Position numbers and translations under genes: made by a program. The notes beneath the pieces are model-generated. The model was not told the origin of the DNA and did no database searches. It saw nothing but the letters and a program-made list of their open reading frames with translations. Shown here piece by piece: positions 10,219 through 35,940 of a stretch of 64,000 nucleotides of DNA (the first letter of the stretch is position 1; the number at the start of each line of letters is the position of its first letter). Source of the DNA: an uncultured Alphaproteobacteria bacterium. Its GTDB lineage: Bacteria > Pseudomonadota > Alphaproteobacteria > Rhizobiales > Amorphaceae. The stretch is from contig OY969922.1 in NCBI GenBank assembly GCA_963704595.1, forward strand, positions 3,754,660 through 3,818,659. The letters are read 5' to 3'.

Positions 10219-10992
10219 CAGCCGCGCCCCCCGAAATCGGGCTGGCCCAGCGGGAAGATCGGCCCCTCGCAGACGAGGAGCTGCGGTCCCGCGCGGGTGT
10301 CGTGGATGCACACCTTGCAGACGCCGAGGCCGCACGCCATCGCCGCCTGCAGCGACGCCTCGCCTGGAATGCCGGCGCGCGCGGCGTAGGCCTGCGCGAT
10401 TCCCATCGCCGCGTTGCCCGCCCCGGCGGCGACGAAGCCCGGCTTCTGCGCAGAGAGCGCGGCGTCGAGACCGCCGAGCGGCACGTAATCGACGGCGGCT
10501 CCGGTTGCCTTGAAGGCAGCGAGCAGCGGGCCGTCGGACGGGTTTTTCCCGTCCTCGACCATCAGGACGCGGTCATCGTGACCCGCGGCGCGGCGCTCGT
10601 GGCAAAGTGCCAGCATCGTTCCGGCGTGGAAGGCGTCGGCGACGATGGCGATCGGCGCGTCAGGCGCAGAAAAGGTGTTGCCGAGGGGGCCGATGAGCGC
10701 GACGCGGTCGCCGGGCCGGGCAGCCGCCAGCATCTGCGTCCCGGCGCGCTTGATGTTGAAGGCGATGGCGAGTTGCTCCGTCCATCCGCGGCACGAGGCT
10801 GAGCGGCCGGGGCAGGATCGGCGCGCCCGGCGCAAGGCTCGCCAGCATCGCGAACTGCCCTGCGCGCGCACCGCGGAACGCGTCCGGCCAGTCGAGCCTC
10901 AGCTCGCAGACCGTGCCGTCGACGGTGATGGAAGTGACGGTGCAGTCGACGTCGACGACATCGCGCACGGTGGGGGCGGCGGCTTCGCTCAT
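10218..10992 (-). CDS. pyrK: Dihydroorotate dehydrogenase electron-transfer subunit (FAD/2Fe-2S), interrupted by a 1-nt frame shift near 10778
   Basis: N-terminal half is ORF 10660..10992 (FAD-binding region, RPLSLVPRMDG); C-terminal half is ORF 10218..10871 (TEQLAIAFNIKRAG ... CGLGVCKVC, the 2Fe-2S cysteines); the two are in different frames. Confidence 0.8.
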
Positions 10993-12015
10993 CGGGCGTC
11001 CATGAAGGCGGAGAGGAAGGCTGCGGCGTTGTCGGTGAGTGCTGGCGCGAGGTAGCCGCCCTCCTGCACGAGCGCGACCGGCAGCCCCGACGCACCGATC
11101 AACGCCCCTGCCCTGCGCATTCCTTCAGTGGTGACCGCCATGCCGCCGAGCGGGTCGCTTTCGTGCGCGTCGAACCCGAGGGCGAGGACGATGCGTATCC
11201 GCGCCGAAGCGGGCGATGTCGCCGAGCCCCGCCTCGAGGGCTGCGAGCCAGGCGTCGTCGCGGCTTCTCATCGGGAGCGGCCGGTTGACGTTGTAGCCCT
11301 CGCCGGGGCCGGCGCCGGTCTCCGCCGCATGACCGACGAACCAGGGATAGAAGTTGTGCGGGTCGGCGTGGATCGACACCGTCAACACGTCCCGCCGCTC
11401 GTAGAAGATCGCCTGCGTGCCGTTGCCGTGGTGGACGTCGATGTCGAGGATCGCGGGGCGCGCGCCTTTTGCCGCGAGGTGCGCGGCGCAGATGGCGGCA
11501 TTGTTGAGGAAGCAGTGGCCGCCGGCGACTTCGGCGCTCGCGTGGTGGCCGGGCGGGCGCGTCAGCGCGTAGGCCTCGCGCGCGCCGTCCGCCAGAGCGT
11601 TCGCGGCGGCGACGGCGCACTCCGCGGCACGGCGCGCGGCATGGCCGGTGTGCGGGCCGACCGGGCAGGCAAGGTCGCTCATGTGCCACCCGGCGCGGCC
11701 GACGAGCCCGTCCGGATAGGTCGCCTCGGCGCGGCGCGGCTGGGCGTTGCCCACCACCTCCGCCCCGGCGCCGGTGATCGCCTGCCAACCTTCGAAGGCG
11801 TGCTCCAGGAATGCCAGGTAGCGGGGGGTGTGCACCGCGGCGAGCGGCGCGATGCCGGCGTCCGGCGGGGACTCGTGGGTGAGGCCGACTTCGCCGAGCG
11901 CCGCGAGGAGGCGCTTTGCCCGTTCGGCGCGCTCCTCGTTGGCGGCGACCCGGCCGCGCAGAAGGAAGAACTCCGGCGCGTGCGCCTCTGTCTCCGGGGC
12001 ATAGAATACGCGCAT
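10989..12015 (-). CDS. Histone-deacetylase-family protein (acetoin utilisation AcuC / acetylpolyamine amidohydrolase-like), 1-nt frame shift near 11215
   Basis: Start at MRVFYAPETEAH; motifs PPGHHA, DIDVHHGNGTQ. After FGADT the annotated frame degenerates, while the +1 frame gives the canonical IVLALGFDAHESDPLGGM ... EGGY and ends at ~10989. Confidence 0.8.
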
Positions 12016-12151
12016 GGGGCCTCCACGGTCGCGGGCGGCGGGGATGATCGCCGGCACCGCGGCAACGCCGGAGGCAGGCAATAGCGCGCGCATTCGGCGC
12101 GGCGCAAGCGCCGGCGGGGGATCGGGCCAGCCATTGGAAGACGAAGGGGGA

Positions 12152-12226
12152 TGGAGCGGGCGATGGGGATCGAACCCACGACATCAAGCTTGGGAAGCTT
12201 GCGTTCTACCGCTGAACTACACCCGC
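12152..12226 (-). tRNA. tRNA-Gly (anticodon CCC), CCA encoded
   Basis: Reverse complement GCGGGTGTAGTTCAGCGGTAGAACG...CUUCCCAAG...GGTTCGATCCCCATCGCCCGCTCCA folds as a cloverleaf: 7-bp acceptor stem with one G-U pair, anticodon loop UUCCCAA, T-loop GGTTCGATCC. Confidence 0.9.
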
Positions 12227-12373
12227 ATGACGCGCACATCAGTCCGAACGGTGGGCGATGTCAAGCCGGGTTCAGGCGGTTCCGGCTAACCGTCGGAGCG
12301 CTTGACCGTCATGCCGCGCCGCAGCATGAGGAGCCGGCCCTATCACCCCCATGCCAACCGGAGTTGCCCCGTG

Positions 12374-13189
12374 CTCGAGCGTATCCGCAAACTGGTGACG
12401 TCCCGCGCCTGGGAAGGGATGATCATCACCATCATCCTCATCAACGCCGCGATCCTCGGGCTGATGACCTCGGACAGTGCGATGGCCGCCGCGGGGCCGG
12501 TTCTGGTCGCGCTCGACCAGATCATCATTGCCATCTTCATCATCGAGATCGTCCTGCGGATCGCGGTGTTTCGCGTCCGCTTCTTCACCGACCCATGGAG
12601 CTTGTTCGACCTCCTGGTCGTGCTGATCGCGGTCGCGCCGGCGACGCGCGAGTTCTCCGTGCTGCGCTCGCTGCGGATCCTTCGGGTGCTGCGGCTGATC
12701 TCGGTCGTTCCGTCGCTCAAGCGGGTGGTCGGCGGGCTGATCGCGGCGCTCCCCGGCATGGCCTCGATCATGTTCCTGATGGCCCTGATCTTCTACGTCT
12801 TTGCAGTGATGGCGACGTCGCTCTACGGCGACAGCTTCCCGGACTGGTTCGGCACGGTGGGCGAGTCCTTCTATTCGCTGTTCCAGATCATGACGCTGGA
12901 ATCGTGGTCGATGGGGATCGTGCGCCCGGTGATGGAGGCGCACCCCTATGCGTGGGTCTTCTTCGTTCCGTTCATCATGGTGACCTCGTTCGCTGTCCTG
13001 AACCTTTTCATCGGTATCATCGTCTCCGGGATGCAGCAGGACGTGGAGGCGGAGGCTGCCGCCAGCCGCGACGCGATGATGGAGGAGCAGTCCTCCATGC
13101 ACGACGACATCAAGGCCCTGCGACGCGACGTCGGGGCCTTGCGCGAGGCTCTCGCGCGGCAGGGAACGACCGGCCCCGGCGCGGGCTGA
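12374..13189 (+). CDS. Voltage-gated sodium channel, single-domain bacterial type (BacNav / NaChBac / NavAb family)
   Basis: GTG start 7 nt after GGAG. S4 reads LRSLRILRVLRLISVVPSLKRV (Arg every third residue). Selectivity filter FQIMTLESWSMGIVRPV and S6 are near-identical to NavAb. C-terminal coiled coil DDIKALRRDVGALREALARQG. Confidence 0.9.
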   Translation, partial: LERIRKLVTSRAWEGMIITIILINAAILGLMTSDSAMAAAGPVLVALDQIIIAIFIIEIVLRIAVFRVRFFTDPWSLFDLLVVLIAVAPATREFSVLRSLRILRVLRLISVVPSLKRVVGGLIAALPGMASIMFLMALIFYVFAVMATSLYGDSFPDWFGTVGESFYSLFQIMTLESWSMGIVRPVMEAHPYAWVFFVPFIMVTSFAVLNLFIGIIVSGMQQDVEAEAAASRDAMMEEQSSMHDDIKALRRDVGALREALARQGTTGPGAG

Positions 13190-13324
13190 GGGGCGCGGCG
13201 CCGGCACCGGCACCCTGTCGGCGAAAGCCCCAGGCGACCATCGCATGAGATGAAGCGGACTGCCTCGGCGCGCGGAAAGCCCTTCGCGCGCCACGAGGTC
13301 CAATTCGTAGATGGAGGTTCGCCA

Positions 13325-13930
13325 ATGCGTGCCCGTGCATTCGCTGCAGCGCTCTGCGGTGCGGCAATCGCCCTCCAGGCGCAAGCGTCTGAGGTTCCGC
13401 CCAACCCGAAGCAGCTGATCAACGCGGAGGTCATTGCCGAGGTTCAGGAGATGCTTGCGCGCGAGGTGGTCTCCTATGCACTCAGGAACTACAACCGCTC
13501 GCGCGCCGGGCTGACGCAGGACGACATCCTCGCGCTCGACGCCAGGTGGAAGGACGAGCGCGAACGCGAACGCAAGCCGCTCATCGTGGGGACGCTGTCC
13601 AACCCCCTCTCCTCCTACCTGACGCGGATACAGGCGCGTTCGGCCGGCCTCTACGCGGAGATCTTCGTGACCGACGAGAACGGCCTCAACGCCGGGCAGA
13701 GCAGCGTCACCAGCGACATGTGGCAGGGCGACGAGGCGAAGTTCCAGGAAACCTTCGACAAGGGCTCCGGCGCCGTCTTCATCGACGAGGCCGAGTGGAA
13801 CGACGAGAGCAAGACCTGGCGCGCCCAGCTCAACCTGACGATCGACGATCCGGCGAGCGGGGAACCGATCGGCGCTGCCACCTTCGAGATCAATCTGACC
13901 GAACTCCAGAGGCGGGCCGCCCAGTCATGA
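13325..13930 (+). CDS. Periplasmic single Cache/PDC-like domain protein (stand-alone, signal peptide)
   Basis: GGAGG ribosome-binding site; signal peptide MRARAFAAALCGAAIALQAQA; alpha/beta sensor-like domain; stop overlaps the chemoreceptor start (ATGA). Confidence 0.6.
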   Translation: MRARAFAAALCGAAIALQAQASEVPPNPKQLINAEVIAEVQEMLAREVVSYALRNYNRSRAGLTQDDILALDARWKDERERERKPLIVGTLSNPLSSYLTRIQARSAGLYAEIFVTDENGLNAGQSSVTSDMWQGDEAKFQETFDKGSGAVFIDEAEWNDESKTWRAQLNLTIDDPASGEPIGAATFEINLTELQRRAAQS

Positions 13931-15619
13931 AAAATCTCTCGATCGCCAACAAGGGCACGCTCGCCTGCGGCGCCATCGCGCTGATCTCGATCGCCGCATT
14001 CGGCATCGTGATCTGGTCGACGATGATGCAGTCGCGCACCACCGAGCAGGTGCTCCAGACCTACCGGCTCGCCGTTGCGACGGTGGAATATCGCGACGCC
14101 ATGGAGAAAGGGCACGCCTACCTCCTGCAGAAGCTCGTCCTCGGCGAAGATGTCGAGGAAGAGGAGGTGCGCGCGGCGTTCGACGATTCGCGCAGGCAGC
14201 TGGAATCCATCCGCGACTATGTGGACGGCCTCGATGGCGACGACGCGTTCATCGCCCGTCTCGACACGATCGCGGCCCTGCGGGATGAATGGTTCCGCGA
14301 CATCGCTCTCCTCCAGATCCGCGACATGGGCGACCCCTTCCGCGTCGATCTCGCCAGGCTTCGCGAGAACGACGTGCGTGGCCGCGAGATCTGGGTGATC
14401 CTCGACGAGGAGATGAAAGCGCTGATCGCCGAGTTGCGGAATTCTCCGGCAGGTGTATACGAAGCATCTCGAGCAGGAGCAGACCATACTCCTCACCAGC
14501 GGCATCGTGGGCGGCGTCATCGTCACCCTCCTGTCCATGTTCGTTACGATATTCGTGCGCCGCCAGATCGCAGCTCCGCTGCGCGATCACACCGGCGTCG
14601 CGCTGGCGCTGCGCTCCCACGACTGGTCGGTCGCGATCCCGCACCTCAAGCGGCAGGACGAGATCGGCGAACTCGGCCGCGCCCTCCAGACCCTGCGCGA
14701 CGAGGGCAAGATCGCGGAGGAAAACGACGCCAAGTACCGCGTCGAATTGGAGGCTCAGATCAAGCAGGCCGCCGCGATGAAGCGTGCCTCGGACGAGTTC
14801 AAGACGACGTCGGCCGCCGTGCTCGACGAACTGGAATCGGCCGGTCTCGCCCTTGCGGAGGCTGCGCACTCGCTCGGCCTGCGCGCCGGCGAGGGCCACG
14901 CGCTCACCAGCAGCGTCGCGGAGGCTGCATCGTCTTCCGGCTCCAACATGCAGAGCGTCGCCGCCGCGATCGAGGAGATGTCGATCTCGGTCGACGAGAT
15001 CAGCCGTCAGGTCCAGGCCGCGACGCAGCTGACGCAGCAGACCACGCAGGCCTCGCAGGCGGCGATCGAGCAGGTCTCGGGCCTGCTCGAAAAGTCCAAG
15101 AAGATCAACGATGTCATCCAGATCATCGACAACATCGCAGAGCAGATCAACCTTCTCGCCCTCAACGCGACCATCGAATCGGCGCGTGCCGGCGAGGCCG
15201 GCAAGGGATTTGCGGTGGTGGCCCAGCAGGTGAAGGAGCTCGCGGACCAGACCGGCAGCGCGACGGAGGAAATCTCCAAGGTCATCAACGACGTGCGCAA
15301 GGAGATCTCGGACGTTGTGCTCGCCATCGAGGGCATCGGCACCTCGATCAACGCGGTGAACGACAACTCGTCCACCGTCGCCGCTGCGGTCGAGCAGCAG
15401 AGCGCCGCGATCAACGAGATCTCTTCCAACGTCGGCGCGGTATCGACCCAGACCAACACGGTCGCCAGCAACGTCAAGGGCGTCGCCAAGCAGATCGGCG
15501 AGACGCACAGCCTCGCCGAGAACGTCCGCGGCCTCTCCTCCCGCGTGAAGGACAACGGCGCGAAGATGCAGAAGGAGATCGCGTCCTTCTTCGAAGCGAT
15601 CCGCAACCGCGCCGCCTGA
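13927..15619 (+). CDS. Methyl-accepting chemotaxis protein (4HB periplasmic domain, HAMP, MCP signalling domain), 1-nt frame shift near 14450
   Basis: N-terminal part (TM1 plus helical periplasmic domain) lies in the frame of ORF 13546..15687. TM2, HAMP and the signalling domain ([24 protein letters not shown]) lie in ORF 14453..15619. Confidence 0.85.
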
Positions 15620-15874
15620 CCCGGCCGCGGGCCTCCCCGGCCCGCGCGCCATCGCTCTCCGTGCCGCTGCATGACGTGAGAACCTAGCGCTAGCCGCCGG
15701 GCACGGTCCCGCTCACGGGCAGCCCGACGGCACGCCGGTCGGACGGCACCGGGGAACGGAGGCTCCGCCCGAGCCGGTGGCACCCCGGTGCTCGGGCCTG
15801 ACCAGCACTGAAGGCATAGGTGCGCCGCGCATAAACGCCTTCCTCAGAAAGTCCGAGCGGCCTAATGCGGTTCG

Positions 15875-16747
15875 ATGACAACTGTCACGATGCTCCACGC
15901 GGTCACCAGAGACCGGCATGATTTCGCGCCATTCGCCGCCCTCCTCGGCCGGCTGAACCCGCGCCCCATCGACCTCTTGGGCCACGGCGATGCGCCGCGG
16001 TCCGCAAGCTACCGCCTCAGAGACTTCGCCGCCGCCGTCCCCTGGCCCGGCCCTCCCGGCGCACCTTTCGCCAGCAGCGCCTCTCCCGCTCCATACGCAG
16101 CGGACCCCGCGACCAGCGGCATTTTGCAACCGAACGCCCCTCGTCGTCCCGAAGCGAACGCGGACGACGCACCCCTTTTCTACGGTCATTCCCTCGGAGG
16201 ACTGGTGGCGCTCGCGGTGGCGGCTGCCCACCCCGGCGGGTTGCGCGGTCTGGTGCTGGAAGATCCGCCGCTGTTCGAATTGCGCCAGCCGCGCCTCGAC
16301 ACGACGCCGTGGGCGAGCGGCTTTCGCGCCCTGAAGCGCATCATCACCGGCAAGGGCCGGGACTGGACGCTGGCCGAGTGGCAGGAGGCCGTCGCCGCGT
16401 GGCCCTCTGGGCACGGCGAGCAGACCATCCTCGAGTTCGGCGGCACCGAAGCCGTCGCCCGCCGCGCCCGCCAGATCGCGGCGCTCGACCCCGCCGTGCT
16501 CGACGCGATGGTCGCCCCCGACCTCCACGAGGACTTCGACCCGGTCGCGGCGATCCGGGCCGCACGCTGCCCCGTCACCATCCTCGTCGGCGCGCGCGAC
16601 GCCGGCAGCGCCCTCAGCGCGGACGACGTCGCGATTCTTGCCGCCGAACCCAGCGTGACCCTTGTGCGGATCCGGGCGGGAGGCCACTACCTCCACGAGG
16701 CAAGGCCAGACCTGTGCGTCAGCGCGCTGAAGGCCCTCGCCCCCTGA
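15875..16747 (+). CDS. Alpha/beta hydrolase fold protein
   Basis: GHSLGG nucleophile elbow; Pro/Ala-rich insertion before it. Confidence 0.7.
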   Translation: MTTVTMLHAVTRDRHDFAPFAALLGRLNPRPIDLLGHGDAPRSASYRLRDFAAAVPWPGPPGAPFASSASPAPYAADPATSGILQPNAPRRPEANADDAPLFYGHSLGGLVALAVAAAHPGGLRGLVLEDPPLFELRQPRLDTTPWASGFRALKRIITGKGRDWTLAEWQEAVAAWPSGHGEQTILEFGGTEAVARRARQIAALDPAVLDAMVAPDLHEDFDPVAAIRAARCPVTILVGARDAGSALSADDVAILAAEPSVTLVRIRAGGHYLHEARPDLCVSALKALAP

Positions 16748-16811: not shown

Positions 16812-17850
16812 ATGACAGACGAGCCCGCCACGGCCGCGCGGCAAGGAGCCCGCGGCCCAGCCGCGCCGGCCGGCGCGACCGGCGCCTCCGCAATGTCCGC
16901 GGCGCCCACCGTCCTCGCCACCGCCGCCGTCCCGAAATTCTCGGCGCGGATGGACGGGACGTCGTGGGCGATGCTGACGGCGCTTTCGGCGCTATGGGGC
17001 TGCTCGTTCGTCTTCGTCGAGGTCATCCTCACCGCGATCCCGGTGCTGACGCTGGTCGCGCTGCGCGTCCTCATCGCAGCGCTCACCCTGTGGATTGCCG
17101 TGGGACATCACGCGCACGCCGCTGCCCCGACCGCCGCGGATCTGGGGCGCGTTTCTCGTCCTCGGCGTCATCAACAACGCGATCCCGTTCTCGCTCATCG
17201 TCTACGGGCAGACCGAGATCACGGCCGGGCTCGCCGCGATCCTCAACGCAACCACCCCGCTCTTCACAGGCCTCATCGCCGGCATCGCCCTCACCGATGA
17301 GAAGCTGACGCCGGCCAAGCTCGGCGGCATGGCGCTCGGCTTCGTGGGCGTCGTGGTGATGATCGGCCCCGGCGCGATCCTGACCCTCGGCGGCGACATC
17401 CTCCCCGAGCTCGCGATTATCGGCGCCGCGCTCTCCTATGGCTTCGCCGCGGTGTACGGCCGCCGCTTTCGCCGGTTCGGGGTGCGGCCTGTCGTCATTG
17501 CCGCAGGACAGACGACGGCGTCCGCCTCGATCATGGTGCCGCTCGCGCTCCTTGTGGACGGGCCGGCGGTGTTCTCCGTCGACAGCCCGCTGATCTGGAC
17601 CGCGATGGTCGCCAACGCCTGCCTTTCCACTGCGTTGGCGTACATCCTTTATTTCAGCGTCCTTGCCCGTGCCGGGGCCACCAACGCCAGCCTCGTCACG
17701 GTGCTGGTGCCGGTGTTTGCCGTCATCATCGGCACGCTTCTCCTCGATGAATCGCTCGCAATCGAACAGATCTGCGGAATGGGCTTGATCTTCGCGGGAC
17801 TTGCCGTGATTGACGGAAGGCTGTTCAAGAGAACGGTCGAACGTCCATAA
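16812..17850 (+). CDS. DMT superfamily transporter (EamA), 1-nt frame shift near 17100-17150
   Basis: ORFs 16812..17300 and 17095..17850 each encode one half of a 10-TM EamA protein in different frames. The true start may be MSAAP (16893) or MDGTSW. Confidence 0.75.
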
Positions 17851-17946: not shown

Positions 17947-18501
17947 TTGGCCAGACCGACAACATCCGGCGTTGAATTGCGCTACGGCTCCGCCCTCTTC
18001 GAACTCGCCCGCGATGCCAATTCGCTGGAGAGCGTGGAGAAGGACGTCAATTCCCTGCGCACCATGCTCGGCGAGAGCGCCGACCTGAAGCGCCTCATCA
18101 AGAGCCCGCTGTTCTCGGCGGAGGTTCAGGGCAAGGCCCTGTCCGCCATCATGGACAAGGCCGAGATCACCGGGCTGACCGCCAATTTCGTCAAGCTGGT
18201 CGCCAAGAACCGCCGCATCTTCGCCCTGCCGGGGATGCTGAAGGCGTTCGGTGAGCTCCTGGCCGACCACCGCGGCGAGACCATCGCCGTCATCACATCC
18301 GCGGAGCCGCTCAGCGAGAGCCAGGTGGCCGCACTCAAGGAAGCGCTGGCCGAGAAGGCCGGCGGAACAATCAAGCTCGAGACCCACGTGGACCCGACCC
18401 TCATCGGCGGTCTGATCGTGCGTCTGGGCAGCCAGATGATCGACACCAGCGTTCGGACCCGCCTCCAGGGTCTGCGCGCCGCCATGAAGGAAGCCGCATA
18501 A
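17947..18501 (+). CDS. atpH: F0F1 ATP synthase subunit delta
   Basis: OSCP/delta family (GRYASALFELA-type N-terminus). Likely TTG start at 17947; the ORF track extends to 17884. Confidence 0.88.
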   Translation: MARPTTSGVELRYGSALFELARDANSLESVEKDVNSLRTMLGESADLKRLIKSPLFSAEVQGKALSAIMDKAEITGLTANFVKLVAKNRRIFALPGMLKAFGELLADHRGETIAVITSAEPLSESQVAALKEALAEKAGGTIKLETHVDPTLIGGLIVRLGSQMIDTSVRTRLQGLRAAMKEAA

Positions 18502-20055
<1,554 letters not shown>

Positions 20056-35358: not shown

Positions 35359-35589
35359 GAGCCTACTCCGTTTCCCATTGCCGCAACCCCTCGGTTAACG
35401 CGCGAAGGGCGAGGAACCAACGCTCGTTTTCCGGGCAAAACTTCCGGGGATAGGGAGGACAACGGTTTCGCACCTCTTTTCAGGCGGGCGCGCACGCAGC
35501 TGGCGCAGGAGACGGGCGCGGGACAATGCCGGCCGAAGAACCCTTCTCATCGCGGCCCGGCTCCCCTATATTCGGGTCTGCCAGCGACG

Positions 35590-35940
35590 GTTGGCTATGG
35601 CGATAAACGGGCAGCGTAATAAGCTCTTCGGACCCGGGGGCGGTACCCGGCGCCTCCACCCAAGCCGCGAGCCTTGAACAGGGCGCGCGGTTTCGGCGGG
35701 GGCGAAATAGGATCGACGAGGGTGTAAAGGCTCTTCTTTCGCTCGGTATGGTACCACCGTCATCGGACCAAAACTGTAGTTGCGAATGACAACTATGCTG
35801 AGGCTCGTCTCGCTGCGTAACGCAGCGCGATAACCTCGTTTAAGTCCTTTCCCTTAGCCGGGCGAGGCGGGGTTCGGAGGCACCTGGCAACAGAAGCCTC
35901 CACTTCATCCTGCCCATACACATCCGGTTCAGCCGCAGCG
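35590..35940 (+). ncRNA. ssrA: tmRNA (ssrA), circularly permuted two-piece alphaproteobacterial form; acceptor piece ends at ~35660, coding piece starts at ~35698
   Basis: Tag frame GCG AAT GAC AAC TAT GCT GAG GCT CGT CTC GCT GCG TAA (ANDNYAEARLAA*), preceded by UAGUU, with the stop codon inside a cgctgcg/cgcagcg hairpin. T-arm ccggg-ggcggta-cccgg followed by the acceptor 3' strand cgccucc-A-CC. Coding-piece 5' end GGGGGCG..GGAUCGACGAGGG gives a 7-bp acceptor stem with a G3.U70 pair. Outer gene ends are approximate. Confidence 0.85.

Follow-up and report, generated by a model that had tools for sequence, protein, structure and literature searches.

The window analysed here is a stretch of 64,000 nucleotides (nt) from an uncultured alphaproteobacterium (contig OY969922.1). 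Between positions 12371 and 15619 it carries three consecutive plus-strand genes, which encode a bacterial voltage-gated sodium channel (BacNav), a small secreted protein of the Cache/PDC fold, and a chemoreceptor (methyl-accepting chemotaxis protein, MCP) with a CHASE3-family sensor domain. An earlier reading of the letters without database searches (hereafter the sequence-only reading) had proposed that the three genes constitute a linked channel-sensor-chemoreceptor unit. Our comparisons indicate instead that they are probably two independent units that became neighbours by lineage-specific gene order. One is an ordinary BacNav. The other is a conserved cassette of the Cache-like gene and the CHASE3-type MCP gene, the products of which are probably a co-sensor and its receptor. 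The features of the two units are as follows.

12371..13189, plus strand, BacNav channel gene, 272 amino acids (aa) (Pfam Ion_trans, 1.7e-41; alignment with NavMs and NavAb)
13190..13324, no strand, gap of 135 nt between the channel gene and the cassette, long enough to hold a promoter of its own; includes GC-rich hairpins whose significance is uncertain
13325..13930, plus strand, secreted stand-alone Cache/PDC-fold protein of an uncharacterised family, 201 aa; first gene of the two-gene cassette
13927..14440, plus strand, N-terminal part of the chemoreceptor, frame 1, with the first transmembrane helix (TM1) and a divergent periplasmic CHASE3-family sensor domain (homology to cassette MCP N-termini)
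14427..14452, plus strand, frameshift site, one base longer here than in the intact orthologue; the simplest description is an extra A in GGAATT at 14440/14441
14441..15619, plus strand, C-terminal part of the chemoreceptor, frame 2, with TM2, HAMP and the MCP signalling domain (Pfam HAMP 8.3e-08, MCPsignal 4.2e-31)

Neighbourhoods of the channel and the cassette

The association between the channel and the cassette was surveyed from both sides. A scan of one genome per species gave at least 585 confirmed Cache-like loci, and 80 of these were taken with 8-kb flanks; a BacNav gene was present within 8 kb of the Cache-like/MCP pair at none of the 80. The reciprocal survey used 80 metagenomic BacNav loci, whose channels were 49–64% identical to that of the window and 51 of which extended at least 2 kb downstream. 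Neither a Cache-like gene nor any MCP signalling domain was found within 7 kb of the channel gene at these loci (0/80). Both units are present in Roseibium suaedae, where they lie on one contig approximately 477 kb apart and the channel gene stands beside siderophore-uptake genes. The synteny comparison that the sequence-only reading had called for thus did not recover a linked unit outside a single clade, and inside that clade the gene order was variable.

The clade in question, that of Acuticoccus, was represented by nine genomes with channels at least 69% identical to that of the window. In four of these genomes the channel and the cassette were directly adjacent, in three others one or two unrelated genes stood between them, and in the remaining two the cassette was absent from the neighbourhood. 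The co-location of the three genes in related genomes, which the sequence-only reading had anticipated, does therefore hold for the closest relatives (Acuticoccus sp. MNP-M23, Logan contig L165 and the metagenome-assembled genome (MAG) AcusKO). The order channel, cassette, alpha/beta-hydrolase, EamA transporter, atpH was read in the window, in MNP-M23 and in L165. The AcusKO MAG carries the channel and the cassette in another context, away from the hydrolase, EamA and atp genes. Where genes intervened, it was the hydrolase gene, with or without the EamA gene, that stood between the channel and the cassette (three genomes), as in M5D2P5 with the order channel, hydrolase, cassette, atpH. The order channel, hydrolase, EamA, atpH without a cassette was found in L167 and L170, in both of which the end of the channel gene extends 4 nt into the hydrolase gene; in one of the two genomes a cassette is present on another contig (L009). 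The order around the hydrolase gene was read in L083, L084, L167, L169 and L170.

In a neighbour-joining tree, the seven Cache-like proteins of the clade formed one group that split exactly into the two positional classes. Because these proteins are monophyletic, the linkage of channel and cassette represents one inherited arrangement and not repeated association. The split would mean a single ancestral placement followed by a block swap of the cassette relative to the channel. The stable partners are therefore the Cache-like gene with the MCP gene on the one hand and the channel gene with the hydrolase, EamA and atp genes on the other, and the variable junction is that between the channel and the cassette. 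The 4-nt overlap of the channel and hydrolase genes in two genomes suggests co-transcription with the hydrolase gene rather than with any chemoreceptor gene; the stable set includes the atpHAG operon.

Conservation of the two-gene cassette

The 80 Cache-like loci span Hyphomicrobiales, Rhodospirillales, Sneathiellales, Kordiimonadales and other orders. Three of them end at contig ends, too early for a downstream MCP gene to be judged. At all of the 77 evaluable loci the Cache-like gene was followed directly, in the same orientation, by an MCP gene encoding HAMP and a signalling domain, and the MCP match started approximately 0.6 kb past the end of the Cache-like gene. The gap from the Cache-like stop codon to the MCP start codon was 40 nt or less in 57 of the 77 loci, with several overlaps, where the start nearest the upstream stop was taken, which biases the gaps low. 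The Cache-like gene and the CHASE3-type MCP gene thus appear, on this gene order, to be a conserved two-gene chemosensory operon in Alphaproteobacteria with near-obligate pairing.

A second size class of the cassette was observed in the group of Rhizobium, Hoeflea, Ciceribacter and Allorhizobium, in which the partner MCP has approximately 650 aa, compared with approximately 560 aa elsewhere, and the gap is 60–110 nt (loci L016–L020, L025, L032, L034, L039, L042, L048, L051, L052, L054, L055, L057 and L058).

Secreted Cache-like protein

The Cache-like gene is preceded by GGAGG seven nucleotides upstream. Read from the sequence, the N-terminus of its product (MRARAFAAALCGAAIALQAQA followed by SE) resembles a signal peptide with an AXA cleavage site (..ALQAQA/SE). 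Past the signal peptide, the stand-alone 201-aa protein contains neither a transmembrane helix nor an output domain. The sequence-only reading had described this product as a signal-peptide protein resembling Cache/PDC domains and had proposed a structure prediction; the AlphaFold model was confident and gave the Cache/PDC fold, with N-terminal helices followed by a PAS-like alpha/beta core. Confidence, expressed as the predicted local distance difference test (pLDDT), was low for residues 1–20 and approximately 68 for residues 131–150. The structural neighbours of the model were all ligand-binding sensor domains.

The sequence of the window protein gave no match in Pfam, NCBIfam or PDB. Among 20 relatives scanned with the curated Cache models, dCache_1 was matched in just one (E value 0.004). 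Weak matches to dCache_1, MCP-like_PDC_1, HK-GC-Chemotax_sensor and Cache_WalK occurred among family members, and in the fused relatives they were below the cut-offs. Membership of the window protein in the Cache superfamily is therefore supported by the predicted fold and not by sequence models.

Searches returned 1161 homologues at E values of 1e-3 or lower; all named ones are annotated as hypothetical and come from Alphaproteobacteria. An exhaustive profile search raised the family to at least 3062 cluster representatives. Conservation within the family is very strong, with an invariant T-x-D-x-WQGDE-x-K core inside the consensus SDYWQGDEAKFQ. This most conserved stretch coincides with the part of the model of lower confidence (residues 131–150).

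The Cache-like domain was also observed at the C-terminus of secreted proteins of 350–640 aa, behind PilJ or SBP_bac_3 domains and without an output domain. Such fusion proteins (P0273, P0281, P0301, P0306, P0309, P0337 and P0346) resemble periplasmic multidomain proteins that consist of sensor domains only. The N-termini of the PilJ-containing fusions were compared with the sensor domains of the cassette MCPs as a Rosetta-stone test, and no similarity was found (hhalign probability 1.7%). The fusions consequently give no support for a contact between the Cache-like protein and CHASE3.

Chemoreceptor and its sensor domain

The Cache-like gene and the chemoreceptor gene overlap in an ATGA (ATG at 13927–13929, TGA at 13928–13930), exactly as the sequence-only reading had noted. 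The chemoreceptor matched the Pfam models HAMP (8.3e-08) and MCPsignal (4.2e-31). Its sensor domain, like that of the MNP-M23 copy, gave no Pfam match by itself, and a database search with the N-terminal 171 aa gave no match at E values of 1e-5 or lower. The class of the domain was hence assigned via sequences translated from the fetched cassette loci. The window N-terminus was homologous to the N-termini of cassette MCPs of other genera (hhalign 99.2%, E value 3e-19, 211 columns). Among the cassette MCP sensor domains of these genera, Pfam CHASE3 was matched in 31/36 and 4HB_MCP_1 in 18/36, and a profile built from cassette MCP sensor domains matched the CHASE3 structure 3va9 (E value 1.3e-06). 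CHASE3 is itself a member of the 4HB_MCP superfamily (PMC9769921). The label 4HB-MCP given to the gene earlier is accordingly right at the level of the superfamily; the family is CHASE3, and the window copy has no Pfam 4HB match.

Across orders, the Cache-like protein retains 50–60% identity and the partner sensor domain 15–25%. The otherwise divergent sensor domain contains one conserved patch, QIxLMRxPxTVDxARAxExTG, in which W122, Q130, A143 and R144 (MNP-M23 numbering) are nearly invariant. This patch is a candidate docking site, judged from its conservation.

Frameshift in the chemoreceptor gene

The chemoreceptor gene (13927–15619) spans 1693 nt and does not form one continuous open reading frame (ORF). 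The first 171 codons lie in frame 1, whereas TM2, HAMP and the signalling domain lie in frame 2, which has an in-frame TGA at 14424–14426. The sequence-only reading had read across this frameshift. The orthologue of Acuticoccus sp. MNP-M23 is intact (1692 nt, 563 aa), and its pairwise alignment with the window gene contains a single one-base gap. Removal of A14440 yielded a 563-aa protein without stop codons that was 81% identical to the MNP-M23 orthologue; the C-terminal part was 89% identical.

Four of the 11 genes between 9 and 21 kb were broken in frame relative to MNP-M23 in tblastn comparisons, namely those for a 257-aa protein of no assigned function, a protein resembling histone deacetylases, the MCP and the EamA transporter. 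The break points (10747–10772, 11192–11194, 14427–14452 and 17096–17122) do not lie in obvious homopolymers. Since three further genes in the vicinity show the same kind of break, a sequencing or assembly error is a more likely cause of the chemoreceptor frameshift than true pseudogenisation. Programmed frameshifting at 14440 was considered and set aside, as the site has neither a slippery nor a stop-codon context, the orthologous genes run without interruption and the three nearby genes are broken too.

We consider it rather unlikely that the frameshift reflects genuine pseudogenisation of the chemoreceptor gene in this strain, with the cassette, and any module of which it was part, decaying here. 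The presence of a single additional base, in comparison with the intact orthologue of 1692 nt, and the position of the site outside a homopolymer run would fit such decay. The same extra base is also present in a second assembly, Logan contig L082 (run ERR12040027; two single-nucleotide polymorphisms relative to the window), and this weighs against an assembly error; both assemblies may, however, stem from the same read set. The breakage of 4/11 genes within approximately 11 kb is typical of an indel-prone assembly and implausible for a free-living genome of 4.7 Mb, and the repaired gene is otherwise well conserved, with 81% identity over 563 aa.

Sodium channel

The channel product, scanned as 271 aa, matched Pfam Ion_trans over residues 11–225 (E value 1.7e-41). 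Its best relatives of solved structure were NavMs (5hvx, E value 4.7e-79) and NavAb (5yub and 3rvy, approximately 1e-78), with full-length alignment. The S4 segment carries four arginines at three-residue spacing (LRSLRILRVLRL) that agree column for column with S4 of NavAb and NavMs. The pore stretch, mtleswsmgivrp, contains the filter TLESWSM, which is identical to that of NavAb and NavMs, and the filter and S4 residues were invariant in 20 close relatives. The C-terminal tail aligned with the neck and coiled-coil region of NavAb; an a/d heptad pattern (I-L-V-L-L; IKALRRDVGALREALARQ) was read in it from the letters alone.

The description of a NavAb-like channel with S4 arginines and a TLESW filter was thus sound, its sequence quotations were exact, and the Pfam match and the alignments agree with it. 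The gene boundaries proposed earlier (12374..13189, 271 aa) were correct at the stop codon and wrong at the start. Position 12374 is CTC, which is not a start codon, and the gene starts at GTG 12371, with GGAG at 12360–12363 upstream, to give 272 aa. An identical 272-aa protein is present in the database (P0121), where it is grouped at the 90% level with the MNP-M23 protein annotated as "ion transporter". The source organism is hence a member of Acuticoccus or stands very near to it.

These features identify the channel as a further, ordinary BacNav with a single six-transmembrane Ion_trans subunit, and we infer Na+ selectivity and voltage gating from them. In comparison with NavAb of Arcobacter butzleri and NavMs of Magnetococcus marinus, it is alike in the subunit of approximately 270 aa with six transmembrane segments, in S4, in the filter and in the conserved S6, and its C-terminal tail can be aligned with that of NavAb. 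It has no structural peculiarity and is a new orthologue from an Acuticoccus-like alphaproteobacterium, known here from sequence.

The Acuticoccus MAG AcusKO (GCA_054603455.1; L166 and L171) contains a second BacNav paralogue. Its two channels are 81% and 62% identical to that of the window. Only the 81% paralogue adjoins the cassette; the 62% paralogue lies between alcohol dehydrogenase and MarR genes, near transposase fragments and without an MCP neighbour.

Gap between the channel gene and the cassette

The gap of 135 nt between the channel and the cassette compares with an overlap of 4 nt inside the cassette, and it is only partly conserved with MNP-M23. A consensus scan of 12000–16000 found no promoter, and the terminator search of this region returned two intragenic sites only, which is the chance level. 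The whole 135-nt gap folds at z = -2.7, and the hairpin just past the channel stop codon was no more stable than shuffled sequence in the window or in three relatives. Directly after the MCP stop codon of MNP-M23 (L081, 10292–10380), a very stable hairpin was observed (z = -4.1 against shuffles), which probably serves to terminate transcription of the cassette operon. At 15627–15645 of the window lies a GC hairpin of lower stability.

Weighing of the explanations

The explanation that we prefer, two independent units, would operate as follows. The channel would function as a homotetrameric voltage-gated Na+ channel of the NavAb/NavMs type. Separately, the secreted Cache-fold protein would bind a small periplasmic ligand and dock on the CHASE3 four-helix bundle of the translationally coupled MCP. 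Once docked, it would act as a co-sensor, switching the receptor and, through it, CheA. The placement of the cassette immediately 3' of the channel gene in the sub-clade of the window would reflect inheritance from one ancestor and is no evidence of joint function. Several points weigh against this explanation. The cassette lies within approximately 3 kb of the channel in 7/9 genomes of the clade, which would fit some selective linkage, and the AcusKO MAG keeps the channel and the cassette together although the hydrolase, EamA and atp genes are elsewhere. Co-transcription over the 135-nt gap is conceivable, as no terminator was detected in it, and NaVBP of Bacillus pseudofirmus is reported to affect motility and chemotaxis (PMC4453477, PMC4225499). 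With respect to the cassette, the binding of the Cache-like protein to CHASE3 and any ligand are conjecture on our part, and the Cache-like protein is far more conserved than the sensor domain, which is unexpected for a tight co-evolving interface.

The points concerning linkage, the AcusKO trio, the gap and NaVBP, together with direct same-strand adjacency in four related genomes, are also those that favour the model of the sequence-only reading, in which the products of all three genes act together as one co-expressed electro-chemosensory module and Na+ entry or membrane potential modulates the receptor. We regard this model as very improbable. The two reciprocal surveys gave no linked case (0/80 and 0/80), both units are present but unlinked in Roseibium suaedae, and all linked cases trace to one ancestral event. 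Even within the clade, unrelated genes intervene in three genomes, and in two the cassette is absent and the channel gene overlaps that of the hydrolase. The 135-nt gap, as opposed to the 4-nt overlap inside the cassette, and the second AcusKO BacNav paralogue without an MCP neighbour point in the same direction. A narrower proposal is that, in the Acuticoccus lineage, Na+ entry or depolarisation through the BacNav tunes the adjacent receptor, which would extend the tie between NaVBP and chemotaxis from Bacillus, and that the neighbourhood was therefore kept in 7/9 genomes and moved as a trio in one MAG; its chance is, if anything, slighter still. The high conservation of the Cache-like protein relative to the receptor sensor domain favours another reading, which concerns the role of the first cassette product. 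The protein could be a ligand-independent accessory factor for receptor activity, folding or clustering, comparable with YycH/YycI for WalK, or merely a co-regulated binding protein with a separate role. The most conserved stretch (SDYWQGDEAKFQ) lies in the region of pLDDT approximately 68 and could be a protein-contact loop, not a pocket, and the domain is fused to PilJ and SBP_bac_3 in secreted proteins without output domains. We nevertheless judge this reading unlikely, since the Cache/PDC fold is overwhelmingly one that binds small molecules, the structural neighbours of the model all being ligand-binding sensor domains, and since translational coupling with one receptor type at 77/77 loci points to a dedicated partnership.

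Flanking genes

The plus strand from tRNA-Gly(CCC) to the atp operon carries five genes, for the channel, the small secreted protein, the chemoreceptor, the alpha/beta-hydrolase and the EamA transporter. The features outside the two units are as follows.

12152..12226, minus strand, tRNA-Gly(CCC) (ARAGORN; Rfam tRNA, 67.8 bits); upstream boundary, divergent from the channel gene and outside the unit
15875..16747, plus strand, alpha/beta-hydrolase gene (tblastn with the MNP-M23 orthologue); in sister genomes directly 3' of the channel gene, sometimes overlapping it
16896..17850, plus strand, EamA-family transporter gene, frame-broken near 17096–17122 (tblastn splits across frames 3 and 1; orthologue 323 aa)
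17947..20055, plus strand, atpH and atpA, start of the F1 ATP synthase operon (protein identity to MNP-M23 95–97%)

The genes atpH and atpA are the conserved downstream anchor of the neighbourhood, and Pfam OSCP and ATP-synt_ab were found in the syntenic loci. The possibility of a genomic island at tRNA-Gly was rejected, because the upstream context varies among relatives and the backbone of channel, hydrolase, EamA and atp genes is kept. The GC content of the window is 64–73%. Long ORFs on the opposite strand (12272–13384, 14249–15652 and others) and in other frames were dismissed as shadow ORFs in view of the GC content of the genome (66–73%) and the strong homologues of the plus-strand genes. 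Rfam gave no riboswitch or small RNA in the region. Elsewhere in the window, a two-piece (permuted) alphaproteobacterial transfer-messenger RNA gene was observed at 35540–35911 on the plus strand, with the tag peptide ANDNYAEARLAA, which is ordinary for the class.

Relation to known systems and implications

NaVBP reportedly co-localises with MCPs; our literature search returned nothing relevant on this co-localisation. Nor did it return any account of a gene cluster that joins a BacNav with an MCP, or of free periplasmic Cache proteins as partners of chemoreceptors. NaVBP ties a BacNav to chemotaxis physiologically, in an alkaliphilic Firmicute, whereas the present case consists of gene proximity only, in one alphaproteobacterial clade.

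Ligands are known for only a few of the many CHASE3 domains. In contrast to the Cache/PDC sensor domains of receptors such as DctB, CitA, KinD, WalK, Tlp3 and PctA, the window protein is free and secreted and is not placed between two transmembrane helices, and no Pfam Cache model is significant on it. Signalling of solute-binding proteins through chemoreceptors is established for the maltose-binding protein with Tar and for the ribose- and galactose-binding proteins with Trg (reviewed in PMC8050422). The proposal for the cassette is similar in that a soluble periplasmic protein is paired with a chemoreceptor of the four-helix-bundle type. It differs in that the partner is a Cache/PDC fold of approximately 180 aa and not a two-lobed solute-binding protein, that it is encoded in an operon with the receptor and not with a transporter, and that the interaction is proposed. 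In the GlnH-GlnX system of Corynebacterium glutamicum, a periplasmic binding protein signals through a 4HB/CHASE3-like transducer encoded nearby (PMC9769921). There, in an actinobacterium, GlnH is a solute-binding protein and the output is the Ser/Thr kinase PknG, whereas the cassette has a Cache fold and an MCP as output.

A module of neighbouring genes linking membrane excitability with chemoreception would be striking, and comparative genomics gives no support for it. Adjacency in a single genome, even with a suggestive link in the literature, needs reciprocal neighbourhood surveys before it is labelled a module. The analysis points to a widespread unannotated family of secreted Cache-fold proteins, without a Pfam model, that is paired almost obligately with CHASE3-type chemoreceptors in Alphaproteobacteria. 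If this pairing reflects function, a dedicated periplasmic Cache-fold partner would represent a new route of indirect sensing, and the small soluble Cache-like protein would offer a handle for finding the signal of the receptor.

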